In this document: one piece after another, positions 1 through 60,514 of the stretch
Layout of the letters: each line of letters opens with the position of its first letter
Position numbering within the stretch: position 1 is the stretch's first letter
Source: Mobula hypostoma
Lineage: Eukaryota
Direction of reading: 5' to 3'
NCBI RefSeq assembly: GCF_963921235.1
Contig: NC_086097.1
Coordinates: 90,460,001-90,524,000, forward strand
DNA length: 64,000 bases
Notes under the pieces: generated by a model
The model's input: the letters and a program-made list of their open reading frames with translations, nothing else
Database searches by the model: none
Told to the model about the DNA's origin: nothing
Made by a program: the position numbers and the translations under genes

Positions 1-1652
1 GTGCTGATGTGTCTGTGCTGCTGTGGCTTGCCTTCTGCAGCTGAAAGATTTGCTCGGTGTCTGAGGGAGTGATTGTTCAGGCCTGCCACAGGAGGTACTA
101 AAGCTGTCCTTTGGTTCTGCTTTGTTAATTCCTTCAAGCTTACATTGTGTGCTCACCTCTGCGCCAAATGGGACTTTTGTTGTGGAAGTTACAGTGTAAT
201 GGACTGGTGCAGTTAAAAAAAATGCTGTTTTAGGATTGTATTAAATTCTTCCTGTTTTTAAACAAAATCTCTGTGGTATTTATTTCTTCCTCCTCACTCC
301 GTGTGTACATAAAACATTAGATACTAGACACTAGAATACTACAGCACAGTACGGGCCCTTCGACCCTCGATGTTGTGCTGACCCATATATTCCTTTAAAA
401 AAAGTACTAACCCACACTACACCGTAACCCTCTGTTTTTCTTTCATCCATGTGCCTGTCCAAGAGGCTCTTAAATACCCCTAATGTTTTAGCCTCCACCA
501 CCATCCCTGGCAAGTCATTCCAGGCACCCACAACCCTTTGTGTAAAAACTTACCCCTGATGTCTCCCCTAAACTTCCCTCCCTTAACTTTGTACATATGC
601 CCTCTGGTGTTTGCTATTCATGCCTTGGGAAACAGGTACTGGCTATCCACCCTATCTATGCCTGTCATAATCTTGTAGACCTCTATCAAGTCCCCTTTCA
701 TCCTACTACGCTCCAAAGAGAAAAGTCCCATCTATGCTAACCTTGCCTCAAAAGACTTGTTTTCCAATCCAGGCAACATCCTGGTAAATCTCCTCTGCAC
801 CCTCTCCATAGCTTCCACATCCTTTCTATAATGAGGTGACCAGAACTGAACACAATACTCTAAGTGTGGTCTCACCAGAGATTTGTAGAGTTGCAACATG
901 ATCTCTCTACTCTTGAACTCAATCCCCCTATTAATGAAGCCTAGCATCTCATAGGCCTTCTTAACTATCCTATCAACCTGTGCAGCGACCTTGAGGGATG
1001 TATGGATTTGAACCCCAAGGTCCCTCTGTTCATCCACACTCTTAAGTAACCGAACAGTAACCCTGTACTCAGCCTTCTGGTTTGTCCTTCCAAAATGCAT
1101 CACCTCACAGTTCCAGATTGAACTCCATCTGCCACTTTTCTGCCCAACTCTGCATCCTGTCTATATCCTCTTGTAACCTTCGACAACCTACAGCTGCATC
1201 CACAGCTCCTCCAATCTTCGTGTCGTCCACAAACTTACTCACCCATCCTTCCGCCTCTTCATCCAGGTCGTTTATAAAAATCACAAAGAGCAGGGGTCCC
1301 AGGACAGATCCTTGCGGCACTCCACGAGTCACCGATCACAAAGCAGAATACTTTCCTTCCACTACTACCCTCTGCTTTCTTCCTTTAAGCCAATTTTTTT
1401 TATCCAAACAGCCAAGGTTCCACTGATCCCATGCCTTATGACTTTCTGGATGAATCTGTCATGGGGGACCTTGTCAAATGCCTTGCTAAAATCCATGTAG
1501 ACCACATCTATCGCCCTACCCTCATCGATTTCTTTTGTTACCTCTTCAAAAAACTCAATTAGGCCCGTGAGGCACGACCTTCCCTTCACAAAGCCACGTT
1601 GACTATCCTTGAGTAGACTGTACTTCCCCAAGTGCTCGGAGATCCTATTCTT

Positions 1653-1857
1653 TTTTTTTAATTTTATTTTTATTTGGTAAGGAGTTCACAATTATCATGT
1701 ACTTTTTTCACACATATAACCTTTTCCATTTTTTTATATGTATAAAACTACAATTATTTATACATTCTTAAGTACACATTGAGATGATATAAAAGCAAAA
1801 TAAACATTTAAATAGATAATTATGCACTGTGGTAAATCTAACCTATTAGGCTAAGTA
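1653..1857 (-). mobile_element. 5'-truncated poly(A) retroelement 3' end (probably L1-clade)
   Basis: T-tract on + strand, giving AATAAA plus an A-tail on -. Flanked by ATTCTT (1647-1652, 1858-1863). The same 3' end recurs at 53194-53243. Confidence 0.65.
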
Positions 1858-2428
1858 ATTCTTAAGAATCGTTTCCAGTAGTTTGCAGACCACCGACGTA
1901 AGGCTCACCAATAGTTCCCAGGATTCTTCCTATTACCTTGTTTAAACAAGGGAACTACATTTGCTATTCTCCAATCCTCCGGCACCTCCCCTGCAGCCAG
2001 AGAGGATTCAAGGATCATAGCTACTGCTCCAGCGATCTCTTCTCTCACTTCCCACAGCAACCTGGGGTATATCACATCCATCCCTGGATGGTTTCAAAAG
2101 GATCCAACACTACTTCTTCCTTAATCTCCACATTGTCCAGCACACAGGCCTGTTCTATTTCGACCACACCTTGATCAAGGTCCTTTTCGCTTGTGAATAC
2201 TGAAGCAAAGTATTCATTTAGGACCTCCCCAACCTCCTCCGCCTCCAGGCACATGTTGCCTTCTTTATCCTTTAGCGGCCCCACCTTCATTCTTGTCATC
2301 CTTCTGTTCCTCACATACGCATAGAACGCCTTGGGGTTCTCCTTAATCCTACATGCCAAGGCCTTCTCATGCCCCCTTCAAGCTCTCCTAAATCCTTTTT
2401 TAAGCTCCTTCCTGGCTACCCTATATTT

Positions 2429-4085
2429 TTGAAACTTTTTGAAATGGTTTAAGCTGAAAGAGAGCATCTGTCATATTAGGTGGATAAACAGAAGGGTAAT
2501 TTGGTAATAAACCATGTAAAAAAATTTCCAATTTGTAAATATCTAAAAAAGTGTACATTAGATAAATCATACTTATCCACTAACTGAGAGAAAGATATTA
2601 AACAGTCCCTGAAAAACAAATCTGAAAAAGTTATTATTCCCTGGGTTTTCCAAATTAAAAAGGCCTTATTCAAAATTGATGGTTTAAAAAAATGATTGAG
2701 ATGGATATTATCAGAAAGAATAAAATTATTTAACTCAAAAAATCTATGAAACTGAAACCAAATTCTTAATGTATGTTTAATAATGGGATTAAAATCTTGT
2801 TTGCTAATCTTAGAAAACAAAAAAGGAAGAGGAGCTCCCAGTAAAGAGGCCCTTCACTGAGTTTTCCTCCAAATCCAACCATGAAGGACATTCATGTATA
2901 TCTGAATAGTGAATCCAAAAAGTAATATATCAATGTTAATTGCCCAGTAATACATTCTAAAATTTGGTAAAGCCATACCACCATCGTTTTTCAATTTCTG
3001 CAATAAGGGTTTACTCAATCTAGGATTTTTATTGTTCCAAATATAAGATAAGATTATAGAATCTATTCTGTCAAAGAACATTTTAGGAACAAAGGAAGGA
3101 ACTGCCTGAAATATATATAAGAATTTTGGTAAAACTATTTTAATAGCATTAGTTTGACCTATTAATGATAATGTCATAGGCGACCATTTAGAAAGCTTTT
3201 GTTTGGTGTATTCAATTAATGGAAAAAATTATATTTATAGAGGTCCTTAAAATTTTTAGTAATTTTAATACCAAGATAGGTAAAGTAATTTTTAGCAATA
3301 CTAAAAGGTACTTGATAATTTGGATCCGAGTAATTATTAATAGGAAAAACTCACTTTTATGTAAATTTAATTTATACCCAGAAAAACTACTGAATTCAGA
3401 AAATATAGCTAACATAGAAGGAATAGATTTCCTTGGATCTGAAATATAAACTAACAGTTCATCTACATATAATGAAACCTTGTATATTTTGTCCCCTCTC
3501 TTAATACCCTGAACAGTATTAGAATCTGTAAGAGCAATAGCAAGGGGTTCTAAAGCCAAGTTAAATAATAAAGGGCTAGGAGGACATCCCTGCCCAGTAC
3601 CCCTATATAATCTAAAACAGGGAGATGTTTGATTATTAGTTATAACCGCAGCCACAGGGGCATGATAGATCAATTTGATCCAGGAAATAAATCCTGGGCC
3701 AAAATTAAATCTTGCCAAAACCTCAAATAAGACCACTCCACCCTATCAAATGCTTTCTCTGCATCAAGAAAAACAACACATTCAGATTCTTTAGATGGAG
3801 AAGAGTGAATAATGTTTAATAATCTTCAAATGTTAAAATGTGAATATCTATTTTTAAGAAATCTAGTTTGGTCATTGGAAATAACAGTAGGTATTAGCCA
3901 AGATCTTAGAAAGAATTTTAAAATCCACATTCAATAAGGAGATTGGTCTATAGGAAGCACATTCAGATAAATCTTCCTTTTTTAGGAATTAAGGAGATTG
4001 AAGCTTCATAAATAGTTTTCGGGAGAGTCGCAGAGGAAATAGAATCAGTGAAAATCCGACATACATGAGGTGTAAGTGTATCAGA
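2429..4085 (-). mobile_element. L1-clade LINE ORF2 fragment (RT domain, frameshifted)
   Basis: ORFs 3212-3736, 2854-3177 and 2476-2820 contain RGTGQGCPPSPLLFNLALEPLA, SLYVDELL and GGMALPNFRMYYWA. AT-rich. 13-bp TSD CTACCCTATATTT at 2416-2428 and 4086-4098. Confidence 0.9.
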
Positions 4086-4349
4086 CTACCCTATATTTCT
4101 GATGATCCCCTTCTGCTTCCTGCTTCTTATATCTAACATAAGGTGTAACCCTGGAGTTTTCTGCCCCGGAGGGTTGTGAAGGCTGAATCATTGCGGAGAT
4201 TGAAAGAGAAAGTCAGAAAGACCAGGGTATTCAGGGTTACTGGGGGAATGGCACACAACAGGAGGGAAGGCCCAGGAAGATAATCAACCATAATCATATC
4301 AACTGACAGAGCAGACTTGGGGACTGTGGCTTACTCCTGCTCCTACCTC

Positions 4350-4580
4350 ATGCCTTTCACAAGCTCAGGCAGTCCCTAAATGTTTTACAATTATTTTAAA
4401 TTTTAAAATGTGGCCATTGTTGTAAAATGGCAAAGGTTGGAGCCAGGATTACTGGTTAACGACATTTTCCAGGCTGTGCAAGATCCCACAGCCAGTAATA
4501 TGATGAAGTCCAGATAATGCCATCTGTTGAGGGTGCATCTTGGCCAGAACACATAAGAGAAATTCCTGTGTCTTCCTTGT
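4350..4580 (-). mobile_element. Old Deu-domain-type SINE remnant
   Basis: Resembles, from recall, the reverse complement of the DeuSINE (AmnSINE1/SacSINE1-like) 3' half. Similar to 40990-41350. Confidence 0.45.
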
Positions 4581-4939
4581 ACCTGTACCTGAGATCTTTA
4601 ACAGGAAGGGACAACCATGCTCAACATCTCAGGCGCAGGACTTGAACCTGTCACACCTAGACTTTTGGGAGAAATGACACAATGAGGCATAAGCAGCCAG
4701 CTTGGGTGCTGCATCCAGCAGCAGGTCAAGAATAGATGAGCCAGAGACTGGCGACTCTTTGATTCCTGCTGTGTTTGCTCTGTTGCCATTTCCTACTTAT
4801 TCATTTCTCCTTGACATGGGGGTTAATGGGTTGGAAAGCAGCCAACAGGCCGCCATCATCTTCTGTGGTGGGGAATACCACATGATCAACACCTTCTGAG
4901 TGAAGACCTCTATCTTCATCTCCATCCTGGAGGTTGGTA

Positions 4940-5560
4940 TTGGCATTGCTTTGTTATTGTCACATGAACCACGACACAGCGAAAAGCTTGTCTTGCATAC
5001 TGTTCATACAGATAAAGTCATCAGGCAGTGCGTTGAACTAGAATAAGGGAAAGCAATAACAATGCAGAATAAAGTGTATGAGCTATTAAAAAAACACAGT
5101 GCGGGTAAGTGGGTAAAGTGCAAGGTCATAATGATTGTGAGGCCAATCTTATCATACAAGAGGTCCATTCAATTGTCTGATAGCTGTCGGATAGAGGCTG
5201 TTCTTGAGTCTTGTGGTAAGTGCTTTCAGGCTTTTGTATCTTCTCCGGATGGAAGAGGGGTGAAGAGGGAATGTCCGGGGTAGGTGGAGCCTTTGATTAT
5301 GCTGGCTGCTTTACTGAGGCATTGATAAGTAAGTAGACAGTCCGTGGAGTGGAGGCTGGTTCCTGTGATGCACTGAGCTGTGTCCACCACTCTGCAGTTT
5401 CCTGTAGTTGCCATACCAAGCCACATCGCATCCAGACAGAACGCTTTCTTTGGTGCATCGATAAGAGTTGCGAAGAGCTGACGGTTGAAATGCTGAATTT
5501 CTTTAGTGTCCTGAGGAAGTAGAGGCATTGGTAAGCTTTCTTGGCCATGTTATCAGTGTC
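4940..5560 (-). mobile_element. Rex/Babar-type LINE 3' fragment
   Basis: Peptide AKKAYQCLYFLRTLKKF and RVVDTAQCITG...KAASIIK motifs. 3' UTR is shared with other copies in the window. Confidence 0.75.
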
Positions 5561-7723
5561 TCACCTAAGGGGTCCATCCATCATACTGAGCTGTGTAGTA
5601 ACCAACAAGCTGGTGAGTAGGATGGGAAATGGGTTGTTGTGTGTTGTGGGGGAGGGTGGGTGGCAGGAGCTCGGGATCATAGAGAGGGGAATTAGGCAGG
5701 GGTACTTTGGAAGAAGGGGAAGTGCCCCACAAGGGCACTAGTGACCAAGAGAGAAGCAAAACAGGTTGTGATTGGGAGAAGAGGAAAGTGATTAGGATGG
5801 AAGACCATAGATTATGCTGGAAGCTAATGGCAAGGAGGAGGAGTGTATTGGTTAGGAATAGTGGGTTAGTATGTACTGGTTTTTGACAGCACCCTACACT
5901 GTTAATGCTGGATTGTGAAGATCAGCCCAGTACCTTCAAGAGTATTTCTTGAAGTATGTTTTTGGTGACATTTTACAGTGACCTGTACAAGAATAGCTGG
6001 TCAGATTAGGCTTTGCTGAACTTGGTCTCTATAGTATTCTCTGGGGTCACTGAGTCATATAACACAGCAACAGTTCTGCAGACCATCAACTCTTTCCCTC
6101 GCCAGGCAGAGGCAACATTTTTTAAACTGTACACTTCTGCTACCCTAAAGAATTTCATCCATTATTTCCACATGACAAAGGAGGCTATTTGGCCCATCAA
6201 GCTTATTCCAGAATGCAGCAATCCTATTCCTTCTCTAATTTTCCCTGTACTTTTTGCCCCTGTGTTGCAGTCAACCTCCAAGTTGGCCAACTAACCGTCA
6301 TACCTCTAGAATATGGAAGAACAGAGAACATTACAGCCCATTGCAGGTCTTTTGGTCCATGATGTTATGCTGACCTTTTAACCTACTCTGAAATCAATCT
6401 AACTTCCCTCTTACATTGCCCTCCATTTTTCTATCATCTGTGTGCCTATCTAGAAATTGCTTAATGCCCCAATGTATATACCTCTACCACTGCCCTGGCA
6501 GGGTATTCCACACACTCACCGCTCTCAGTGTGAAAAAACTTACCTCTGACATCCTCTATAGTTCCCTCCAATCAGCTTAAAATTATGGCCCCTTGTATTA
6601 ACTATTTCTGCTCTGGGAAAAAGTCTCTGACTATCGACTCGATCAATGCCTCTTATTATCTTGTATACCTCCAAGAAACCTCCGATCCTCCTTCGCTCCA
6701 GAGAGAAAAGCCCTAGCTCGCTCAACCTATCCTCATAAGACATGCTCTCTAATCCAGGCGGCATCCCAGTAAATCTCCTCTGTACTCTCACCAAAGCTTC
6801 CACATCCTTCCTATAATGAGGTAGCCGGAACCGAACGCAATGTTCCAAGTGTGGTCTAAGCAGGGTTTTATAGAGCTGCAACACTATGTCATGGATCTTG
6901 AACTCAATTCTCCAACTAATGAAGGTCAAATTACAATACGCCTTTGTAACGGCACTGAACTCGTGCAGTGACTTTGAGGGATCTGTGGAACTGGAACCCA
7001 AGATCTCCCTGTTCCTCGACACTGCTAAGAATCTTGCCATTAACCCTATATTCTGTCTTCAAATTTGATCTTTCAAAGTGAATCACTTCACACTTTCCCA
7101 GATTGAACTCCATCTGACATTTCTCAGCACAGGTCTGCATCCTGCCAATGTCTCATTGTAACCATTGACAATCTCCTATACTTGTCTACAACACGGCCAA
7201 CCTTCAAGCTGTTTGCAAACTTAGTAACCATCCTTCCACTTTTTCATACAAGTCACTGATAAAAATCACAAAGGGCAGGGATCCCAGAGCAGATCCCTGG
7301 GGAACACCACTGGTCACAAACATCAAGGCAGGATAAACTCCATCTACTACCACACTTTACCTTCTATGACCAAGCCAATTCTGTGCCCACACAGGCAAGT
7401 TTTCCTGGATCCCATGCTTTATGACTTTCTGAATGATCTGACCATGGGGAACCTTATCAAACACCTTACTCAAATCCATATGCACCACATCCACTGCTCC
7501 ACCTTCATTCGTGTGTTTTGTCACATTGTCAAAGAATTCAATCAGGCTCATGAGGCAGGAGATAGGAAAGGTGTGTCAGAGAACAATGTCATGATATTCA
7601 TTGGGGATTTTAATACGAAAGTGGATTGGGAAAAACAGGCCAGTACTGGACCTCAAGAGAGAGAATTTGTAGAATGTCTCAGAGATGGCTTTTTAGAACA
7701 ACTTCTTGTTGAGCCCACTAGGG

Positions 7724-7900
7724 CAGTGGTCCCCAACCTCCGGGCCGCAGACTGATACTGGGCTGCAAAGCATGCAGGGGTGCAGCAGTAGCCAGAATGC
7801 ACCCAGCACATCTTTAAGGAAAAAGCCGAAATAAACAAGCTAATTAATTAGGTGCCGCCCGGCACGTAAATGTCGGCCCAAATCAGAGGCGATTGCTGAT
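7724..7900 (+). mobile_element. hAT/Charlie-type non-autonomous element, left end only
   Basis: Starts CAGTGGTCCCCAACC, the same TIR type as 33961/34681. No right TIR seen. Confidence 0.6.
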
Positions 7901-8836
7901 TACATAGAGCAATTGAACCAGATGGCTGGAAAATTGCAAATGTTACTCCACTATTTAAGAAGCGTGGGAGGAAGCAGAAAGGAAACTATAGACCTATTAG
8001 CTTGACATCAGTGGTTGGGAAGTTGTTGGAATCAATTGTTAGGGATGAGATTACGGAGTGTCTGGAGGCACGTGACAAGATAGGCCAAAGCCAGCATGGT
8101 TTCCTGAAAGGAAAATCCTGCCTAACAAACCTACTGCAATTTTTTGAGGAAATTACAAGCAGGGTAGACACAGGAGATGTAGTAGATGTGGTGTACTTGG
8201 ATTTTCAGAAGGCCTTTGACAAGGTGCCATACATGAGGCTGCTTAGCAAGATAAGAGCCCATAGAATTACAGGGAAGTTACTAGCATGGGTGGAGCATTG
8301 GCTGATCGGCAGAAAACAGAGTGGGAATAAAGGGATTCTATTTTGGCTGGCTGCCGGTTACCAGTGGAATTCCACAGGGGTCGGTGTTGGGACTGCTGCT
8401 TTTTACGATGTATGTCAATGATTTGGACTAGGGAATAATGGATTTGTGGCTAAATTTGCCGATGATACAACGATAGGTGGAGGAGCGGGTAGGTTTGAGG
8501 AAACAGAGAGCCTGCAGAGAGACTTAGATAGTTTAGGGGGATGGGCAAAGAGGTGGCAAATGAAATGCAATGTTAGAAGGAGTATGGTCATGCACTTTGG
8601 TGGAAGGAATAAACGGGCAGACTATTATTTCGATGGGGAGAGAATTCAAAATGCAGAGATGCAAAGGCACTTGGAGTCCTTGTGAAGGATACCCTAAAGG
8701 TTAACCTCCGGGTTGAGCGGTGGTGAAGAAGGTGAATGCAATGTTGGCATTCATTTCTAGAGGTATAGAATATAAGAGCAGGGATGTGATGTGAAGCTCT
8801 ATAAGGCACTCATGAGACCACACTTGGAGTATTATG

Positions 8837-9468
8837 CAGACAACAGGAATTCTGCAGATGCTGGAAATTCAAGCAACACACATCAAAGTTGCTGGTGAAC
8901 ACAGCAGGCCAGGCAGCGTCTCTAGGAAGAGGTACAGTCGACGTTTCAGGCTGAGACCCTTCCTCAGGACTAACTGAAGGAAGAGTTAGTAAGAGATTTG
9001 AAAGTGGGAGGGGGAGGGGGAGATCCAAAATGATAGGAGAAGACAGGAGGGGGAGGGATGGAGCCAAGAGCTGGACAGGTGATTGGCAAAAGGGATATGA
9101 GAGGATCATGGGACAGGAGGTCCGGGGAGAAAGACAAGGGGGGGGGGAACCCAGAAGATGGGCAAGGGGTATAGTCAGAGGGACAGAGGGAGAAAAAGGA
9201 GAGTGAGAGAAAGAATGTGTGTATATAAGTAAATAACGGATGGGGTACAAGGGGGAGGTGGGGCATTAGCGGAAGTTAGATAAGTCAATGTTCATGCCAT
9301 CAGGTTGGAGGCTACCCAGACGGAATATAAGGTGTTGTTCCTCCAACCTGAGTGTGGCTTCATCTTTACAGTAGAGGAGGCCGTGGATAGACATGTCAGA
9401 ATGGGAATGGGATGTGGAATTAAAATGTGTGGCCACTGGGAGATCCTGCTTTCTTTGGTGGACAGAGC
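8837..9468 (-). mobile_element. Penelope-like element 3' fragment (GIY-YIG C-terminus + terminal repeat)
   Basis: Near-identical reverse complement of about 27085-27690. GTATTATG is duplicated at 8829-8836 and 9469-9476. Confidence 0.9.
8936..8971 (-). ncRNA. Minimal type I hammerhead ribozyme motif in Penelope terminal repeat
   Basis: Minus strand reads AGTC-CTGAGGA-AGGGTCTCAGCCT-GAAAC-GTC-GACT: CUGANGA box, helix II, GAAA, GUC site, and AGUC/GACU helix I. Confidence 0.75.
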
Positions 9469-10899
9469 GTATTATGTACAGGAGTACTGGAGTATTGTGT
9501 ACAGTTTTGGGCTCCTTATTTTAGAAAGGATATACTGACATTGGAGAGGGTTCAGAGAAGATTCACAAGAATGATTCCAGGAATGAAAGGGTTACCATAT
9601 GAGGCACATCTGGAAACTCTTGGGCTGTATTCCCTGGAGTTCAGGAGAATGAGGGGGGATCTCACAGAAACATTCTGAATGTTAAAAGGCCTGAAGAGAT
9701 TAGATATGGCAAAGTTATTTCCCATGGTAGGGGTGTCTAGGACAAGAGGACACGACTTCAGGATTGAAAGTCGTTCATTTAGAACAGAGATGCGGAGAAT
9801 TTACTTTAGTCAGAGGGTGGTAATTCTGTGGAATTTGTTGCCACGAGTGGCTGTGGAGGCCAAATCATTGGGTGCATTAAAGGCAGACATAGATAGATTC
9901 TTGATTAGCCAGGGCACCAAAGACTATGGGGTGAAGGCAGGAGGCTGGAGATGACTGGAAGAAATGGATCAGCCTATGATTGAATGGCGGAGCAGACTCA
10001 ATGGGCTGAATGGCCTACTTCTGCTCCTACGTCTTGTGGTCTTTTAACCTACCATGTTAGCTATCCCTAATCAGTGCTTCTTCCTAATGCTTGTAAATCC
10101 TGTCTGTAAGAATCTTCTCCAATAATTTGCCCTCCACTGTGGCAAGACTCACTACTCCCTGCTCCCTTTCTTGAACAAAAGAATAACGTGTGCAACCCTC
10201 CAATCGTCTGGTACTACTCCTGTGAGGATGCAAAGATCATCATCATAGTAGGTGCAGCAATCTCTTCTCTCACTTCCCGTAGTACCCTGGCCCTGGGAAT
10301 TTATCTGTCTTAACAGTTTTCAAAAGTTCCAGCACATCCTGCGTCCTAACGTTGACACGTTCTAGCATTACAGCCTGTTTTACACTGTCCTCACAGATGT
10401 CAGGTTTCTCTCACTGATGGATACCAAAGCAACATATTGGGTAAGGACCTCCGATATTTCCTCATACTCATCTAAATCTGATTGGTCCTACCCTCACTCT
10501 AGTCATCTTCCTGTTAGTCACATATGTGTAGAACACCTTCCTCAATCCTATTCGCCAAGGCCTTCTGCCTCCTTCTAGCTCTGAAGTCCATTCTTCAGAT
10601 TCTTCTTGGCTACTTTGTAACTCTCTAGAGGCCTTTCTGATCCTTGTTTTTTAAACATTAAGTAAGTTTCTTTCTTGCTTTTGACAAGATATTCCATCTC
10701 TTGTCAACCATGGTTCCTTCACCGTACCAACCTTTTCCTCCCTCAACGGGCCAACCTATCCAGAAGCCCATGTGAGTGCTCCCTAAACAACCTCTACATT
10801 TCTGTTGTTTGTTTATCTGAGGACATCAGTTCCCACTTTGTTTCCAAGCTCCTGCCTAACAGCATCATAGTTTGCTACCTTCCCCTGTCCCCATTAATA

Positions 10900-11133
10900 C
10901 GAGGGGTGATGGATAAGTTTGTGGCCTAAGGAAGAAGGAGTCAATTTTAGAAAACCTAGCACATTTATTTTTCAACACAGTACCCGCCTTCATTTACACA
11001 CTTAGTCCAGCGGTCGTGGAGCAAACAGATCTTGGACCTCCAGAAAGTGTCCACAACATGGGTGATTGATAAGTTTGAGGTTAATAACTCAGCTCCTTCT
11101 ACCTTGGGCTATGAACTTATCAATCACCCCTCG
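10900..11133. mobile_element. Mariner-type MITE, short derivative
   Basis: TA-CGAGGGGTGAT...ATCACCCCTCG-TA termini with TA TSD. Homologous to 53120-53634. Confidence 0.9.
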
Positions 11134-13399
11134 TACTTAGCCATACTGACTGCTCCTATCCCTCTCCAAGGCTGTGATAAAGGTCATGGAGTTGTGGTTA
11201 CCATCTGTGAAATGCTGACCCACTGAGAGATCTGATACCTGACCTGCTTCAGTACCATTGGTAAGAAACTGAAGCACAGGGAGAACATGCAGTCTCTACA
11301 CAGACAGTGCTATTGAACCTGTGCTATTGAAGCTGTACTATTCGATGGAAGGTGCAACTGTCAAATTATTTCCTGAATCTAGAATTAAGACAGTCATATA
11401 ATCACACCTTTTAGCTTCATCTTTCCATGCCCATGGGGATCATGTCTAAGTTAAAATTTAGACATCAAAGCTAAAACTTGTGCTTATGACTGTATTAAAC
11501 GTGGGGATCTCAACTAAGTTAGTTGATTTATCCTTGCATGGCTATTCAGATCAGCTAGTGAGGTCTTTGCACCTGACAGATGACATAATGCTAGGGTTTT
11601 CACTGTCCAATGCTGTGGTGGTGGTGTGGCTGTCAGGAGGCAGAGGGAGAGCTGAGACAGGGCCTTTTAATGAATAAGAAGCCTTGTAGTTTCGGCAGAA
11701 AGCCAGCTGCTGGAGGAACTTAGTCGGTCAGGCAGCATCTATGGAAGTGAAAGCATAGTCAACGTTTCGGGTCGTTGATTTTTTCTCCCGGTCCCAGCCT
11801 TCTCCTTTGTCTCTTCCATTTTCTGCAGCCTGGTTGTCAGTGGCTTCATAGCCCAGCCCGTGCTCTGGCCAATATTTCTGACCAGTTAGGTTGGCCAAGG
11901 TCGATGGTATTCTGAAAGAGGTTCATTAGTTTATGAGATTCACAGATTGAGGAGACAGCTGTTATCTTTATTCCAGGGTCAAAATGTTGTTAACAAGGGG
12001 CATGTGTTTAAGGTGAGAGGGAGTAAGTTCATGTAGGGCAAGTTTTTTTAAAATGGAAAATGGTGGTGCCTGAAATGCGTCACCAGGAATGGTGGTGGAG
12101 GGCGGATAAGATAAGGTTTTATGTTAAGAGGGTCTTGGATAGGCACGTGAAACTGCAGAAAATGGGATATGGACCATGTGTAGTGATCAGGAGTGAGCAT
12201 AGGGAAGTTATCGTCTCTCCTGAAATCAGGGCTATAAACAGATCAGTGACCTCAGGAGTGACGGGCAAGTATCATTCCCCACTTACGTATCACGATCCAG
12301 AATTCAGTTCATGCTGGAGCAATGCCATCAGCCTTATTCCCACTTCACTCATTTTCCGTACCCCTGCAAACGACTCCTGACCCACTCTCATCAAATCTCT
12401 GTTGACTGGGGTTTTGTTTTGCTGTCTAGCTATGTGATGGGAGATTTATGGCAGCCAGTTAACCTTCTGCTCTACTTTGAGATGTGGGTGGAAACTGGAT
12501 CTCCTGGGCAAACCCACGCAGTCTGAGGGAAAACTTGCAAAGCTCGTGCAGGCAAGGCCTAAGGTCGAGATTGACCCTGGGTCTCCTGCACCGGCATGCA
12601 AGTCTGCTTTGTGCATTGTTCTGCTTGGCACACTTGCTGGTGTGGCCCTTCCTCAGTGCCACGCACTTAGCATTTAATAGTCATCCCCTCATGACTGATT
12701 GGTGTCAGGTCACTCCCCACAACTACCACCAACCAACTCCCCCCCCCCACCTGCCAGTCACTTCTTCAACACATGCCATCACTCTCACTCCTCTGTTGCT
12801 TCCTCCCCTCCCAGCTGAAGATGGGGTGGAGTGGGGGGGTGTGGTCAGAAGATCAGGGAGTGCTCTCCCTCCGGCCATTAGGCATTTCAGGAGGCAGTGC
12901 TGGAGGTGGCTACTGTGCTGGAATTCTTCAGGGAATGGGGCTGGAAAGCGGTCCGAATTTAGCCTCAGTTCTCCACTGCAGCACGCTGGTTGACAGGCAG
13001 CAGCAGATGAGGTTCACTCGTGTGTGATGGAAACCGTAAGCATGTTTATCTCGACTGCTCCAGTTTGTGTGTTAAAACTCCCACGGGCCCAGGCAGAATG
13101 CACAGCGGGTGGTGATGATGAAGACTCCCACACTCCGTCTCTCATTGGAAGAGCTTGCATGCATCTCCAAAGGTTTTAAATTTTTGAGCATGGGTGTGAC
13201 TTTGAGATGTTTGAAGACAGTTCATGCTGTTTAACCAGGAGGCAGAGAGAATCAGGAAATATTTAGGCACGTATTCAGGTGATTAGCAAATGAACATCCG
13301 GGTGGAGGGGTCAGCGAAGAGTCACCAGGTGGAGGGGCTAATGAGGAGTTCCTGGGACTAGTGGTCACTAAGTGCAGCTTCTTCACTCTAGACAGCAAA

Positions 13400-25597: not shown

Positions 25598-27292
25598 TTC
25601 GATTGTGACCCCACTAAGGAGCACCAGGCCATTGTCTCCCACACCATTACCGACTTTATCTGCTCAGGGGATCTCCCATCCACTGCTGCCAACCTTATAG
25701 TTCCCACACCTCGCACTTCCCGTTTTTACCTCCTACCCAAGATCCACAAACCTGCCTGTCCTGGCAGACCTATTGTCTCAGCTTGCTCCTGCCCCACCGA
25801 ACTCGTTTCTGCATACCTCGACACGGTTTTATCCCCCCTTGTTCAATCCCTTCCTACCTATGTTCGTGACACTTCTCACGCTCTTAAACTTTTCGATGAT
25901 TTTAAGTTCCCTGGCCCCCACCGCTTTACTTTCACCATGGATGTCCAGTCCCTATATACTTCCATCCCCCATCAGAAAGGTCTCAAAGCTCTCCACTTCT
26001 TTTTGGATTCCAGACCTAATCAGTTCCCCTCTACCACCACTCTGCTCCGTCTAGCGGAATTAGTCCTTACTATTAATAACTTCTCCTTTGGCTCCTCCCA
26101 CTTCCTCCAAACTAAAGGTGTAGCTATGGGCACCCGTATGGGTCCCAGCTATGCCTGCCTTTTTGTTGGCTTTGTGGAACAATCTATGTTCCGTGCCTGT
26201 TCTGGTATCTGTCCCCCACTTTTCCTTCGCTACATCGATGACTGCATTGGCGCTGCTTCCTGCACGCATGCAGAGCTCGTTGACTTTATTAACTTTGCCT
26301 CCAACTTTCACCCTGCCCTCAAGTTTACCTGGTCCATTTCCGACACCTCCCTCCCCTTTCTAGATCTTTCTGTCTCTGTCTCTGGAGACAGCTTATCCAC
26401 TGATGTCTACTATAAGCCTACTGACTCTCACAGCTATCTGGACTATTCCTCTTCTCACCCTGTCTCTTGCAAAAACGCCATCCTCTTCTCGCAATTCCTT
26501 CGTCTCCGCCGCATCTGCTCTCAGGATGAGGCTTTTCATTCTAGGACGAGGGCGATGTCCTCCTTTTTAAAAGAAAGGGCTTCTCTTCCTCCACTATCAA
26601 CTCTGCTCTTAAACGCATCTCCCCCATTTCACGTACATCTGCTCTCACTCCATCCTCCCACCACCCCACTAGGAATAGGGTTCCCCTGGTCCTCACCTAC
26701 CACCCCACCAGCCTCCGGGTCCAACATATTATTCTCCATAACTTCCGCCACCTCCAACGGGATCCCACCACTAAGCACATCTTTCCCTCCCCCCCCTGCT
26801 TTCCGCAGGGATCGCTCCATACGCGACTCCCTTGTCCATTCGTCCCCCCCATCCCTCCTCACTGATCTCCCTCCTGGCACTTATCCGTGTAAGCGGAACC
26901 AGTGCTACAAATGCCCTTACACTTCCTCCCTTACCACCATTCAGGGCCCCAAACAGTCCTTCCAGGTGAAGCATCACTTCACCTGTGAGTCGGCTGGGGT
27001 GGTATACTGCGTCCGGTGCTCCTGATGTGGCCTTCTATATATTGGCGAGACCCGACGCAGACTGGGAGACCGCTTTGCTGAACACCTACGCTCTGTCCGC
27101 CAGAGAAAGCAGGATCTCCCAGTGGCCACACATTTTAATTCCACATCCCATTCCCATTCTGACATGTCTATCCACGGCCTCCTCTGCTGTAAAGATGAAG
27201 CCACACTCAGGTTGGAGGAGCAACACCTTATATTCCGTCTGGGTAGCCTCCAACCTGATGGCATGAACATCGACTTCTGTAACTTCCGCTAA
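25598..27292 (+). pseudogene. Disrupted Penelope polyprotein ORF
   Basis: In-frame TGA at 27023-27025 inside the GIY-YIG motif. Apparent compensating frameshifts near 26578 and 26790. Natural stop near 27292. The first ~50 aa of the tracked ORF lie outside the TSD. Confidence 0.85.
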
Positions 27293-27588
27293 TGCCCCAC
27301 CTCCCCCTCGTACCCCATCTGTTACTTATTTTTATACACACATTCTTTCTCTCACTCTCCTTTTTGTCCCTCTGTCCCTCTGTCTATACCCCTTGCCCAT
27401 CCTCTGGGTCCCCCCCTCCCCCTTTTCCTTCTCCCTGGGCCTCCTGTCCCATGATCCTCTCATATCCCTTTTGCCTATCACCTGTCCAGCTCTTGGCTCC
27501 ATCCCTTCCCCTCCTGTCTTCTCCTATCATTTCGGATCGCCCCCTCCCCCTCCCACTTTCAAATCTCTTACTCACTCTTCCTTCAGTT

Positions 27589-27624
27589 AGTCCTGATGAA
27601 GGGTCTCAGCCTGAAACGTCGACT
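27589..27624 (+). ncRNA. Minimal type I hammerhead ribozyme motif
   Basis: AGTC-CTGATGA(27593-27599)-AGGGTCTCAGCCT-GAAAC-GTC(27618-27620)-GACT. Confidence 0.8.
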
Positions 27625-29594
27625 GTACCTCTTCCTATAGATGCTGCCTGGCCTGCTGCGTTCACCAGCAACTTTGATGTGTGTTGCTTCAGAGGATCCA
27701 ACTCAGGACTCTACATGCTCTATGCTCAGAACTGGAGTGGAAACAAGTCTCCTTCAATGATAAAGGAACTTGATGCCCTGATGCAGGGTTTTGACCACTT
27801 TGCACTAATTTCTTTTTGTTTTCATTTTGTTCTTTCTTGTAAAATTTGTGTTTAATGTAAACATTTCACCTGAAGGTCATCACCCCTACATTTGCAGCCT
27901 TCCCTTTAAGGAGTTCCATTCCAGATTCTGTGCTTGAACCTTGGACCCTTGGCCTTCTGACTCGGAGATGAGGGAGCAGCATTCTGAGCCCGGATGTCCA
28001 GGCAGTTCACATGACCTTCATTCTTTAGTCAAAGATGTTGACCATCAACCATGGAGTATTTTCTGAACGCATTGCGTGTGCCTTCACAATTGGAGCCAAT
28101 CGACTGAATTTGAGTGATGAGTAAATGTCCTTTTCCATAGCATTCAGGTTGAATGAAGCTTTCTGCATTATTATAGGAACAATTCCCTCTCCCAGTGTAG
28201 AAAGCGGAGCGGTGTAAGTAATAGCAATATATTTTCTGTTGCATCTAGCCATTTGCTCCAAATGATGACGGAGTGGAGTGAACCAGTGTAGGAGAAAAAT
28301 AGCTGTGCAGTCAGTGGGGCATGGGTAAGAAAGGTTTATTACAGATTATTCATCATTCACAACAATATCTGAGGGCTACTCGGCAATATTTTAACCACCC
28401 CCCCTCCAAACTTCTAACTGGTTAGTCAATCATTTTACTTCCTTGTCATGTCCAAAATTCTAATTAAATTATTGGTAGGAAAGTTATGTGGACCAGAAAG
28501 CAAACACTTTAATAAATGATTACGGTGTACAATTTGAGGACAGAAGTTAGTCATCAATATTTTCGCCCCCAAAAATGTCCTACACAGTTAATCATTTTGC
28601 TCTCTTACAATACCCCAAACTTCAATTAAGTTATTGGTATGATGATTATACAGACCAGGAAGCAAACTGTTCAATACATGCTTACAGAGTACAATTTAAT
28701 ATCTAGTGTTCAGACACTACGATTTCATTTTATCCATCTGTCCAACCGTAACTGCCTGCTGATCGTTGCTTCTCATTACTCCTGCACTGCTGGTGTTGAG
28801 TATCATTTAAACGCTCAGAGAAATGACTGTCTTGTGATTTTTAAAAGGACTTTTAAAAACCTAAGGATGTGTCATATTTAGCAAAGCCACGGTATGGAAA
28901 ATGGAAGCAAAGAGAAAGCTCTCACACACAACGAGCTTTTGACAATTGAGTGGTACCTTTACAGCTTCCACAGCACTCTCTACCTTACCCAACTCAATCC
29001 CTGCAACTTTCTGAGAGTTTTTGATTGCTGCTGCATAAAAGAGTCAAAGTGTTTTCCGATTCCACCCCCAGTTCTAATAGCTTCTTTATATCTTCCCTGT
29101 CAAGTACTTCCAGCACTGACTGATAAAGTATCAGTTACAGAAACAAGAGGAAGCCCCCATTGTGAGCAGGCCTTTATCTGTGACCAAGCCGCTCTGGAGA
29201 GAAGATGCCAACACCTGCTCTTTTTATGCCCTATGTAATGTTGTAAACCACTATCAGGTCCCTCCCCAGCCTCCTCTGCTTCAAGGAAAACAAACCCAGA
29301 CTATCTAGTCTCTTCATCACTGAATGTTTCCATCCTAAATTACATCCTGGTGAATCCTCTCTGCGTCCTCCCCACTCTAATTATATCCTTCCTGTTGTAC
29401 GGTGACCAGTATTTCAGCTCTATACTAAGGAGTGTTTTATAGTTATATCATAACTTTTGTGCTTTTATAATGAAGGCAAATATCCCATATACCTTCTTTA
29501 TTACCTTATCTACCTGCACCACCATCTTAAGGAATCCTTGGTCTTAGATTCAATACTTCTTAAGACCCTATATTTGCCCAGTTGAATACCTTTT

Positions 29595-30649: not shown

Positions 30650-32740
30650 AGTCAGGTTTAATATCATCGGCAAATGTGGTGAAACTTGTGAACTTTGCGG
30701 CAGCAGTGCAATGCAATACATAATAATAGAAATAAAACTGTGAATTACAGTAAATATATATATAATAGTTAAATAAGTAGTGCAAAAACAGAAACAAGGA
30801 AGTATTGAGGTAGCATTGATAGGTTCAATGTTCATTCAGAAATCGGATGGCAGAATGGGAAGAAGCTGTTTCTGAATCATTGAGAGTGTGTCTTCAGGCT
30901 CCTGTACCTCCATCCTGATGGTAGCAATGAGAAGAGGGCATAAATAATCTTCCAGAAATAGTAAGGGACAGAGGGTCCAGTGAGATGGAGGAACTGAGTG
31001 AAATACATGTTAGTAGGGAAGTGGTGTTAGGTAAATTGAAGGGATTGAAGGCAGATAAATCCCCAGGGCCAGATGGTCTGCATCCCAAAGTGCTTAAGGA
31101 AGTGGCCCAAGAAATAGTGGATGCATTAGTGATAATTTTTCAAAACTCGTTAGATTCTGGACTAGTTCCTGAGGATTGGAGGGTGGCTAATGTAACCCCA
31201 CTTTTTAAAAAAGGAGGGAGAGAGAAACCGGGGAATTATAGACCAGTTAGCCTAACGTCGGTGGTGGGGAAACTGCTGGAGTCAGTTATCAAGGATGTGA
31301 TAACAGCACATTTGGAAAGCGGTGAAATCATCGGACAAAGTCAGCATGGATTTGTGAAAGAAAAATCATGTCTGACGAATCTCATAGAATTTTTTGAGGA
31401 TGTAACTAGTAGAGTGGATAGGGGAGAACCAGTGGATGTGGTATATTTGGATTTTCAAAAGGCTTTTGACAAGGTCCCACACAGGAGATTAGTGTGCAAA
31501 CTTAAAGCACACGGTATTGGGGGTAAGGTATTGGTGTGGGTGGAGAATTGGTTAGCAGACAGGAAGCAAAGACTGGGAATAAACGGGACCTTTTCAGAAT
31601 GGCAGGCGGTGACTAGTGGGGTACCGCAAGGCTCAGTGCTGGGACCCCAGTTGTTTACAATATATATTAATGACTTGGATGAGGGAATTAAATGCAGCAT
31701 CTCCAAGTTTGCGGATGACACGAAGCTGGGTGGCAGTGTTAGCAGTGAGGAGGATGCTAAGAGGATGCAGGGTGACTTGGATAGGTTGGGTGAGTGGGCA
31801 AACTCATGGCAGATGCAATTTAATGTGGATAAATGTGAAGTTATCCACTTTGGTGGCAAAAATAGGAAAACAGGTTATTATCTGAATGGTGGCCAATTAG
31901 GAAAAGGGGAGGTGCAACGAGACCTGGGTGTCACTATACACCAGTCATTGAAAGTGGGCATGCAGGTACAGCAGGCGGTGAAAAAGGCGAATGGTATGCT
32001 GGCATTTATAGCGAGAGGATTCGAGTACAGGAGCAGGGAGGTACTACTGCAGTTGTACAAGGCGTTGGTGAGACCACACCTGGAGTATTGTGTGCAGTTT
32101 TGGTCCCCTAATCTGAGGAAAGACATCTTTGCCATAGAGGGAGTACAAAGAAGGTTCACCAGATTGATTCCTGGCATGGCAGGACTTTCATATGAAGAAA
32201 GACTGGATGAACTGGGCTTGTACTCGTTGGAATTTAGAAGATTGAGGGGGGATCTGATTGAAACGTATAAGATCCTAAAGGGATTGGACAGGCTAGATGC
32301 AGGAAGATTGTTCCCGATTTTGGCAAGTCCAGAACGAGGGGTCACAGTTTGAGGATAAAGGGGAAGCCTTTTAGGACCGAGATTAGGAAAAACTTCTTCA
32401 CACAGAGAGTGGTGAATCTGTGGAATTTTCTGCCACAGCAAACTGTTGAGGCCAGTTCATTGGCTATGTTTAAGAGGGAGTTAGATATGGCCCTTGTGGC
32501 TACGGGGGTCAGGGGGTATGGAGGGAAGGCTGGGGCGGGGTTCTGAGTTGGATGATCAGCCATGATCATAATAAATGGCGGTGCAGGCTCGAAGGGCCGA
32601 ATGGCCTACTCCTGCACCTATTTTCTATGTTTCTATGTTTCTATGTCCTGGGTGATGGGGGTCCTTAATGATGGACACCCCTTTTTGAGGCATCACTCCT
32701 TGAAGATGTCATGGATAGTATGGTGGCTAGTGCCCATGCA
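30650..32740 (-). mobile_element. Rex/Babar-type 3' fragment (30650-30941, 32645-32740), split by a CR1
   Basis: 'gaagagggcat|gtcctgggtgatgggg' rejoins when the CR1 is removed. Compare 45990-46035. Confidence 0.8.
30942..32644 (+). mobile_element. Young 5'-truncated CR1 LINE with uninterrupted RT domain
   Basis: 455-aa ORF 30985-32352 with all RT motifs (GVPQGSVLGP, FADDTK). One frameshift near 32320. (TTTCTATG)n tail. Confidence 0.95.
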
Positions 32741-58520: not shown

Positions 58521-59093
58521 CAACATTGTTTTAAGACTCTTAAAAACCTTATCAATCCTCAAAATCGCTGGACCCCAGACTGCAGACTTGGGATAGAAGT
58601 GCAGTTTCCATTTAAGAAAAAGGAAATGTAGAAGGCGTGCTGGGGTGCAAATGAGATTGAAACGCAAGGCCATGGACTCCTACTCCCCGCTATCCTGCTG
58701 GCGAATGTACTGTCTCCTGAAGATCTCAGAGCAAGACTGCAGTACCAGAGGGCCAGCTGTACACTTCGTGTCACGGAAACATGGCTCACCCCAGATGCAG
58801 CGCTGCAGAACAGCGGAGTCTCTTAGAGATAGAGTGCGCTTCATGATTAACTGACTGCGGTGCACAGACATGGTGGGTTCTAGCTCAGTGTTTCCCACCT
58901 GACCTGCAGTCATGTGACATCCATTTCAAAGTTCAAAGTTCAAAGTAAATTTATTATCACTATGTCTATGATAACAAAGATAAGACTAATGACCCTCTCC
59001 TTACCTCTACGACACTTAAAAACCCTCATGTGATTGCTACACCTTTAAACAACTCACAGAGTTTATAAGCTGGAAAACTACTCACCATGGACG

Positions 59094-59135
59094 AGAACTG
59101 AAGAAGCCTCTCGGATGAGTGGCGAAACGTCTTCT
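59094..59135 (+). ncRNA. Minimal hammerhead ribozyme motif, second family
   Basis: AGAA-CTGAAGA-A-GCCTCTC(GGAT)GAGTGGC-GAAAC-GTC-TTCT. Intact core, 6 of 7 bp in helix II, AGAA/TTCT helix I. Confidence 0.75.
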
Positions 59136-59167
59136 AGACAACACAGGAAGTCCAGGTGCCTTGATTT

Positions 59168-59790
59168 TCAGATTATGAAGACATGCAGTCCTCTTTTATT
59201 GTCATTTAGTAATGCATGCATTAAGAAATGATACAATATTTCCTCCTGTGTGATATCACAAAACACAGGACAGACCAAGACTGAAAAAACCAACAAAACC
59301 ACATAATTATAACATATAGTTACAACAGTGCAACAATACCATAACTTGATGAAGAGCAGTCCATGGCACAGTAAAAAAAGTTCAAAGTCTCTCAAATGTC
59401 CCACATCTCACGCAGATGGGAGAAAGAAAAAAAACTCTCCCTGCCATGCCCGACCACAGTCCGATTCTGAGTCGTCCAAAAACTTCGAGCCTCCGATCAG
59501 CTCTCCGACACCGAATACCGAGCACTGTCTCTATCCGAACGATTCGACCTCAATCTCGGTCACCAACAACAGGCAAAGCCAGGGATTTTGAGGCCTTCCC
59601 TCCAGAAGATTCTCGATCGCACAATAACAACAGCAGCGAACCTGCGTTTCAGAAATTTCTCCAGATGTTCCTCTGTGCTTTCACGTCTATCTCCATTAAA
59701 TCAGAATTGTCCACGGTCCCATTTAACGGATATGATGTCATTTTCACCGGAGGGCTGCGTGCGCGCGGCGCGCTGCTATCTCCTCCTCCT
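59168..59790 (-). mobile_element. Unclassified non-autonomous retroelement (CpG-rich head, T-rich body, AATAAA tail); architecture like 41700-42440(+) and 18650-19365(+)
   Basis: CpG-rich 59450-59780 and minus-strand AATAAA near 59195. No real ORF. Confidence 0.5.
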
Positions 59791-60514
59791 TCCTGTTACA
59801 CTACTTGTTATTATCAATATGTACACCCTGAGATTCATTTTCCTGAGGGCCTTCACGGTAAATACAATAAACACAATTGAATCAATGAAAGACCACACCC
59901 AAAAGGATGGACAAACAACCAGTGTGCAAAGGACAATAAACAAGAAATACAAAAAAAAGAATAAAAAGAAATACTAATAGTAATAACAATAATAATAATA
60001 ATTCAAGGCTTAAGAAACTATGCTAAACAGAGCTCAACAGTAAAAATATAACAAAGGCAATACATACTTTAGTTATACCCATATCAACATATACTTTTGG
60101 CATACTATCTTGGTCTGAAACCAATCTAGAAAATTTATAAAGAAAAATAAGAACTGAAATGACAAATTAACATTACTTAGGACAGAAAAGGGAATTGGAA
60201 TCTGAATCAGGTTTAATATCACTGGCATAAGTTGTGAAACTGTCTTTGTAGCAGCAGTAGAATGCAATACATAATAATAGAAAAAATTGTGAATTACAGC
60301 AAGAATATATATATATATAATAGTTAAATTAAATAAGTAGTGCAAAAATAGAAATAAATGTAGTGAGGGTAGTGCCCTCTTCACCATCTTAATGCCGCTT
60401 TCAGCAAACTATACACCTGCATTTCTTGGTCTTGCTGTTCCACAACTCTACCATTCACTAAATAAGTCCTGCCCTGGTTTGATCTCTCAAAATGCAATAC
60501 CTCACATTTATCGG

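Follow-up and report, generated by a model that had tools for sequence, protein, structure and literature searches.

Minimal hammerhead ribozymes (min-HHRs) of Penelope-like elements were defined by Cervera and De la Pena (2014; PMC4209133). As described in that paper, these motifs combine a long helix II with a short helix I, carry an unpaired base before G10.1 and have a palindrome in place of helix III, and they mostly occur as single copies derived from truncated elements. In its Table S1, the Tetraodon and Oreochromis elements are classed as Poseidon and the Takifugu element as Xena, and the Xenopus and Trimeresurus entries are of the same GGAU-loop type.

The Poseidon element of Anolis (PAc; Frangieh et al. 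2024, PMC11167929) resembles the locus reported here in its AT-rich target and in its pLTR hammerhead. According to the same source, the optional tail of this element is accounted for by reverse transcription having two internal points of initiation; its hammerhead did not cleave without protein, and catalytically dead mutants were still inserted in vitro. Retrozymes are described as tandem units of 150-450 nt which contain a canonical type I motif, with a 6-pair helix I and a 4-pair helix II, and which are expressed as circles (PMC7229834); a preprint (10.64898/2026.07.22.740005) admits minimal motifs in retrozymes too.

The segment considered here (58961-59167) belongs to a 64,000-nt stretch of the Mobula hypostoma genome, which was analysed as a whole and is called the window below. 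It carries a complete minimal hammerhead and is part of a multi-copy family. It is probably the 3' end (pseudo-LTR) of a 5'-truncated Penelope-like retrotransposon of the Poseidon/Xena type, whose insertion into another repeat would be an old event and which a third repeat likely interrupted afterwards.

A complete minimal hammerhead motif

The motif extends from 59094 to 59135 on the plus strand and has the layout of the minimal type I hammerheads in Fig. S3 of PMC4209133; it was recognized by a strict descriptor and by folding. Inspection of the sequence showed a helix I of 4 pairs formed by AGAA (59094-59097) and UUCU (59132-59135), the core elements CUGAAGA (59098-59104), GAAAC (59124-59128) and GUC (59129-59131), and a helix II formed by GCCUCUC (59106-59112) and GAGUGGC (59117-59123) around the loop GGAU. 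The core CUGANGA ... GAAA ... NUH is present in type I order, as in min-HHRs, and cleavage is predicted 3' of 59131. Where min-HHRs have 7-8 pairs in helix II and 4-5 in helix I, the site has seven helix II positions, 6 of them paired and the fourth being a U.U mismatch, and a helix I of 4 pairs. The unpaired base between positions 9 and 10.1 is the extra A59105, located between the core and helix II, and the pair G10.1-C11.1 corresponds to G59106-C59123 (pairing probability of 0.996 upon folding). Helix III is reduced to one pair plus the palindrome ACGU (59127-59130; positions 15.2-16.2), so that no stable helix III is formed. The original prediction had correctly placed the complete core, helix I and the long helix II; its description of the helices had omitted A59105, the U.U mismatch and the reduction of helix III.

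The loose core pattern was found at chance level in the window (8 matches versus 7.75 expected) and thus carries no evidential weight alone. The strict minimal-hammerhead descriptor, drawn up after the site and the published descriptor had been seen, retained three sites in the window, at 8967 on the minus strand and at 27593 and 59098 on the plus strand. None of 100 Markov-simulated windows passed this descriptor, and in 200 further simulations nothing equalled the site at 59098. Rfam gave 0 matches at the gathering score for the whole window and, at E<=10 between 58900 and 59300, no hammerhead and 4 weak unrelated matches. It was concluded that 59094-59135 is a genuine and complete minimal hammerhead motif.

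Relation to Poseidon elements

When compared by eye with the entries of Fig. S3 in PMC4209133, the site shares 37 of 40 letters with the cichlid sequence and 33 of 40 with the Takifugu Xena sequence, and pairs 5, 6 and 7 of helix II are altered on both sides relative to Takifugu. The fish Xena/Poseidon min-HHRs and the window site have in common the GAA/UUC helix I, the CUGAAGA box, the extra A before G10.1, the 7-pair helix II, the GGAU loop and the GAAAC-GUC palindrome. Unlike these fish elements, the window copy has the U.U mismatch in helix II, is devoid of an ORF or a tandem partner, shows a weakly similar upstream region and comes from a ray, a group absent from the table of PMC4209133. 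As motifs of this class, those of fish Poseidon elements included, were already published in 2014, little is new in the motif.

A relaxed pattern scan of metagenomes yielded 109 related loci with 114 matching sites; these loci are not independent, since 107 of them stem from two assemblies. No match was obtained by the pattern scans of viral contigs (three of three) and GTDB genomes (two of two), nor by the first metagenome scan. Among the 58 sites having at least 300 nt upstream, six displayed the C-terminal motif of a Poseidon-type ORF within 450 nt upstream, and in five loci the stop codon of the ORF is located 151-264 nt before the core. Locus L026 contains 512 codons with RT and GIY-YIG domains and two internal stops. 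It lacks the cysteines of the Neptune linker, which are also absent from its named vertebrate matches; cysteines in the RT-EN linker are given as a mark of Neptune/Nematis versus Penelope/Poseidon (PMC8557442). The RT was assigned by Pfam (PF00078, E 1e-10). In the 256-aa C-terminal piece Pfam recognized no family, and the GIY-YIG assignment comes from the motif together with a weak match to the endonuclease of the Neptune-type element of the window (E 1e-4). This element was the sole match of the L026 protein in the window (23% identical). Among the best 120 of 3232 matches, the named relatives of L026 are teleost proteins (61-78%), Xenopus (68%) and Bufo (63%), followed by echinoderms and amphioxus, and no cartilaginous fish is named. 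In a FastTree analysis of 31 proteins (29 picked from 240, plus L026 and the ORF of the window; 620 columns), L026 clustered with proteins of perciform fishes (support 1.0) and was remote from the Neptune-type element of the window.

Since the search pattern had fixed the core, the flanks were tested alone. The segment downstream of the ribozyme (59136-59169, plus strand) is conserved and common to the Poseidon-linked loci: compared with 56 distinct flanks, it gave a best score of 37 and a median of 23, which were reached by 0 of 1000 control segments, and a flank-only profile had its top match in the window at 59147-59166 (E 0.028). The upstream part (58975-59093, plus strand), delimited by the starts of contig pieces, shows a weak colinear likeness to the relatives and would correspond to the 3' UTR of the parent. 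Its best score against the relatives' 3' UTR was equalled by 33 of 499 controls, which is not significant, and the mean of its five top scores by 2 of 499; an upstream-only profile failed to find the site in the window. The ribozyme and its downstream flank are thus homologous with loci in which a Poseidon-type RT/GIY-YIG ORF ends upstream. The proposal of a terminal repeat from a second Penelope-like family, reminiscent of bony-fish ends, is supported, as both the Xena/Poseidon hammerheads of PMC4209133 and the loci linked to a Poseidon ORF match.

An ORF containing RT together with GIY-YIG at its C-terminus is absent from the window copy, which was for this reason filed as a terminal fragment and not as a complete element. 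As had been noticed originally, no ORF of at least 100 aa covers 58961-59167. None is expected at this locus, because the family match reaches 123 nt upstream while the stop codon is found at 151-264 nt. In addition, the upstream match to a reference covers at most 82 nt in 51 of 54 relatives, so that short copies without ORF are the norm. The window copy is also devoid of the optional tail of 30-40 nt; in relatives, a pLTR hammerhead behind the ORF and the tail are both found.

The 3' ends of the relatives, counted from the cut site, fall at +45 to +59 in 49 of 78 cases and at +85 to +89 in 20 of 78. These two clusters, about 35 nt apart, recall the tail of PAc. In 25 of 88 sites, the stretch between them starts with an ATG 52-57 nt past the cut site; it reads MTWMNENIHR, like the N-termini of P0010 and P0054, which are Xenopus and Tetraodon proteins. 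The start codon is inside the hammerhead in PAc, with the cut 26 nt after it (PMC11167929), whereas it is situated 52-57 nt past the cut in this lineage.

Covariation, evoked in the original prediction, was followed in 17 chosen aligned sequences. In these, 91% of the cells are paired, versus 44-63% for slid partners, but the signal is not above column shuffles (2 two-sided pairs, 74/500; score 27/500); relative to the published Takifugu entry, three two-sided changes are seen by eye. At the fourth pair of helix II, where the window has U.U, 108 of 114 relatives have C.A, so that a mismatch at this position seems to be tolerated in the lineage.

Core words were found on both strands in 12 of the 109 related loci. 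In L028, L032, L037, L044, L051, L058, L064 and L076, two hammerhead cores lie on opposite strands, 37-153 nt apart. Judged from their arrangement, such pairs are the inverted-partner insertions typical of Penelope-like elements.

Copies and age of the family

Parts of the segment were detected in 20 rows of sequencing data, none of them from RNA, which represent 10 studies and 9 organism labels plus a skin metagenome; rows X19 and X20, with fewer than 5 matching words, were set aside. The copy analysis was carried out on the contigs of four of these rows, DNA-type runs that include X1, X3 and X5. The segment was multi-copy in all four runs, and a multi-copy family is deduced from the 81-107 separate contigs per site in X1 and X5. 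In these contigs, with 24 of 1389 loose ends covered, a copy of the ray family bearing an ORF was not seen. The summed contig depth, a rough measure that gives no copy number, was 1,568-4,177 in X1 and 3,236-11,205 in X5 over 58965-59139, with about 5 in the flank bin 58860-58894. The sequence is thus neither the orphan that it had been called nor the single-copy sequence that had been named as the outcome against it. Within the window, self-BLAST revealed no second copy, in agreement with the earlier remark that the site is unrelated to the other hammerheads of the window apart from the core. The tandem copies that had been envisaged are missing at the locus, as is a partial tandem or inverted 5' partner, which is frequent and not obligatory in Penelope/Poseidon. 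Literature searches outside Repbase and most of the subscription journals brought up no publication that treats this family in rays.

The youth of the segment had been deduced from its intact CpGs. Five CpGs are indeed present, but the CpG count was rejected as an age marker: at least five are also found in 59 of 309 bins of the same size in the window, and three of the four CpGs other than 59092-59093 are located in helix II or the core of the ribozyme. The window letter is the minority one at no fewer than five sites (59014, 59040, 59082, 59092 and 59093, among 40 of 135 difference rows), where 85-98% of the X1 depth reads another letter. The CpG at 59092-59093 is consequently not the family state. 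In view of these minority letters and of the interruption of the copy by another repeat, the youth of the segment is not supported. The longest contig pieces diverge by 10-18% from the window, long contigs favouring diverged copies.

In X1, X3 and X5, contig pieces start at 58975-58979 with unmatched letters beyond (among 24 of 1389 loose ends), which fits a truncation of the window copy and also a fixed end of the family. Because many pieces start there, the family could conceivably consist of non-autonomous units (SINE-like, or monomers of a retrozyme) which measure about 200-250 nt, stem from a Poseidon pseudo-LTR, have a fixed 5' end near 58975 and are mobilized in trans by a Penelope-like protein. 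The absence of cartilaginous-fish ORFs among the named L026 matches (best 120 of 3232) would agree with this, as would the preprint 10.64898/2026.07.22.740005, according to which retrozymes originate from pLTRs and leave scattered monomers behind. We nonetheless consider such a unit improbable. The depth halves from bin 59035-59069 to bin 59000-59034 in three runs, as expected from staggered 5' truncation; short ORF-less copies predominate even where ORF-linked copies occur; no tandem copy is present at the locus; and the hammerhead is minimal and not canonical in the sense of PMC7229834. The truncated terminal fragment of a Poseidon/Xena-type element is therefore preferred.

As regards the suggestion of a retrozyme-like unit, the segment and the described non-LTR retrozymes are alike in being non-coding, about 200 nt long, endowed with a type I hammerhead and related to pLTRs. 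Those retrozymes form tandem arrays of a canonical motif, whereas the window segment forms no array and has a minimal motif. A retrozyme at this locus was accordingly rejected, head-to-tail units being absent around the single copy.

Possible horizontal transfer

A transfer of Poseidon from bony fish, taken alone, is a tentative reading, and we rate it below an even chance. The teleost ribozymes are the nearest ones, frog and reedfish proteins are nested among teleost ones, and the named L026 relatives (best 120 of 3232) include no protein of cartilaginous fish; these are leads for a transfer, and ray-finned fishes are reported to be involved in 93.7% of the inferred vertebrate transfers (PMC7070016). 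On the other hand, the same ribozyme type is listed for Xenopus and a snake in PMC4209133, and the clear likeness extends over about 75 nt of structured sequence and no more. Furthermore, the preprint 10.64898/2026.07.22.740005, whose sample includes a single cartilaginous fish, records Neptune and Poseidon for five classes of vertebrates, and this reported spread of Poseidon counts against the transfer. The likelihood drops further when a non-autonomous spread is included: it is unlikely that a bony-fish Poseidon crossed into a ray ancestor and then spread as a short hammerhead unit devoid of an ORF, for which the resident Neptune machinery may have been the driver. Once its parent ORF is recovered, the family would offer a concrete case for testing transfer between bony and cartilaginous fish, which is of modest importance.

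In the protein tree, Xenopus, Bufo and Erpetoichthys nest among the teleosts within the Poseidon lineage of L026, with uneven support; Erpetoichthys is found with the catfish Trichomycterus (1.0) and Nothobranchius with the tilapias (1.0). These positions hint at repeated horizontal transfer within the lineage.

History of the locus

The compound insert landed in the tail of a host repeat (58925-58959, minus strand), other copies of which occur at 15410, 19351 and 42421. This repeat is also present at high depth in all four runs, where contigs of its other copies join 58959 to 59825. A 15-nt AT-rich direct repeat, likely a target-site duplication, is found at 58951-58965 (plus strand) and again at 59808-59822 (plus strand), where the interrupted host repeat resumes. 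The two are identical at 14 of 15 positions and enclose 842 nt, which comprise 9 nt on the left, the Penelope fragment (58975-59169), a nested repeat (starting at 59170 and reaching to about 59790) and a final 18 nt. The first 9 nt (58966-58974, plus strand), which separate the left duplication from the family match, look like part of the target site in inverted orientation. An insert at 58961-59167 wedged between two elements had been described earlier. The flanking repeats are there, but the family match begins near 58975 and the direct repeat brackets the next element as well.

The nested repeat (59170-59790, about 620 nt, minus strand, with approximate strand and right limit) is CpG-rich (CpG o/e 0.91) and of very high copy number, with a depth of up to 9e5 in X1 and loose ends before 59170; no RT was seen in it. 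Whereas organisms A and B have it in abundance, much of its length is scarce in organism C, and it could be a lineage marker or a non-autonomous element. In X5 it is mostly very shallow (73-89 at 59385-59454, versus more than 1e5 in X1), while the Penelope family is deeper there than in X1; this comparison suggests that the Penelope family is older than the expansion of the nested repeat.

The 18 nt at 59790-59807 (plus strand) are candidates for the last nucleotides of the Penelope fragment. Their length would put its end at +56, inside the main end cluster of the relatives, although no convincing alignment of this remainder to the relatives was obtained. The simplest order of insertion is the host repeat, then the Penelope fragment, then the nested repeat.

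A single direct repeat encloses both pieces and no duplication is seen around the nested repeat alone. Together with the lack of a clear match for the 18-nt remainder, this could mean that the Penelope fragment was carried in by the neighbouring repeat 59170-59790, through 3' transduction or as a chimera, and that the latter made the 15-nt duplication. Such carriage appears very unlikely, since the length of the remainder fits the usual 3' end of the family, the depth of the nested repeat drops within 59770-59804, before the right duplication, and the target is AT-rich, as Poseidon is reported to prefer (PMC11167929). If true, it would alter the history of the locus and not the identity of the family.

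Predicted folding and proposed mechanism

The whole segment of 207 nt folds no better than shuffled sequences (z -0.02), and the 81-nt core region has a folding z of -1.63 versus shuffles. An outer helix of 9 pairs (59083-59092/59150-59158, plus strand) is predicted to enclose the ribozyme; it was rejected as a conserved feature of the family, being formed inconsistently in 8 folded relatives. In the predicted ensemble of the monomer, helix II pairs at 0.99 and the outer helix is kept, while helix I does not exceed 0.002. A competing hairpin (59129-59132/59136-59139) is predicted to sequester the GUC cut triplet, and the ribozyme-like fold reaches -19.7 kcal/mol versus -24.5 kcal/mol for the favoured fold of the monomer. 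Because helix III consists of one pair plus the palindrome and the hairpin masks the cut site, the solo copy is predicted to be inactive, as a catalytically silent and passive relic. PMC4209133 states that a Schistosoma motif is inactive as a monomer and has low activity as a dimer; a dimer result of Luense et al. is relayed by the review PMC6765202.

The hairpin GUCU/AGAC, which may hold the monomer off, can be formed in the window (59129-59139) and at 98 of 109 related sites, mostly from the two assemblies. In the published Takifugu, cichlid and Xenopus entries, the letters differ from those of the window's hairpin.

That the host has retained a functional solo ribozyme, in the manner of the ultraconserved intronic hammerheads of amniotes, is hardly credible in spite of the intact core and the predicted outer helix, as a monomer would need a longer helix III, helix I is unformed in the ensemble, minority letters adjoin the core and the copy is one of many.

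For a truncated Poseidon/Xena-type fragment, the following course can be proposed. The protein of the parent would nick AT-rich DNA, as judged from the Anolis Poseidon (PMC11167929). By analogy with the same element, reverse transcription would begin within the parent RNA, at the first of its two initiation points, some 50-59 nt beyond the cut site, and copying would stop after some 200-220 nt, short of the ORF. The parental ribozyme would precede the start codon of the next tandem unit by about 55 nt; as the Schistosoma and Anolis cases suggest, its cleavage may require either dimerization through the ACGU palindrome or the protein of the element. As to the role of the hammerhead in Penelope-like elements, the window copy adds no testability beyond the published elements.

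The Neptune-type element and other repeats of the window

A 5'-truncated Penelope-like element of the Neptune type is located at 25601-27690 on the plus strand. It includes an RT, the linker cysteines, a GIY-YIG region, which is frameshifted and contains one stop, and its own hammerhead at 27593. The best named matches of its ORF (25601-27022) are a Mobula hypostoma sequence, at 91% over 68% of the query, and one from Hypanus sabinus, at 87% over 45%, with sharks next (62-69%). The descriptor scan also indicated Neptune-type terminal fragments, one with a hammerhead passing the strict descriptor (8944-8967, minus strand) and others with decayed cores at 43683, about 52540, about 61080 (minus strand) and about 18080 (minus strand). 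The hammerheads at 27593 and 8967 and the four decayed look-alikes belong to the Neptune-type element.

This element shares with the Poseidon-type segment the minimal architecture, the extra A and GAAAC-GUC. It differs by a short helix II, another helix I, the linker cysteines and many more copies in the window, and it is placed far from the Poseidon lineage on the RT tree. The ray genome thus contains Penelope-like elements of two clades, whose hammerheads are distinct: the Neptune type, which is abundant, and the Poseidon type, which is rarer, older and near to teleost elements.

Elsewhere in the window, a 473-codon open RT frame is found at 30931-32352 (plus strand) and a fragmented RT of another type at 2476-3742 (minus strand); from their appearance, they would be ordinary LINE remnants.
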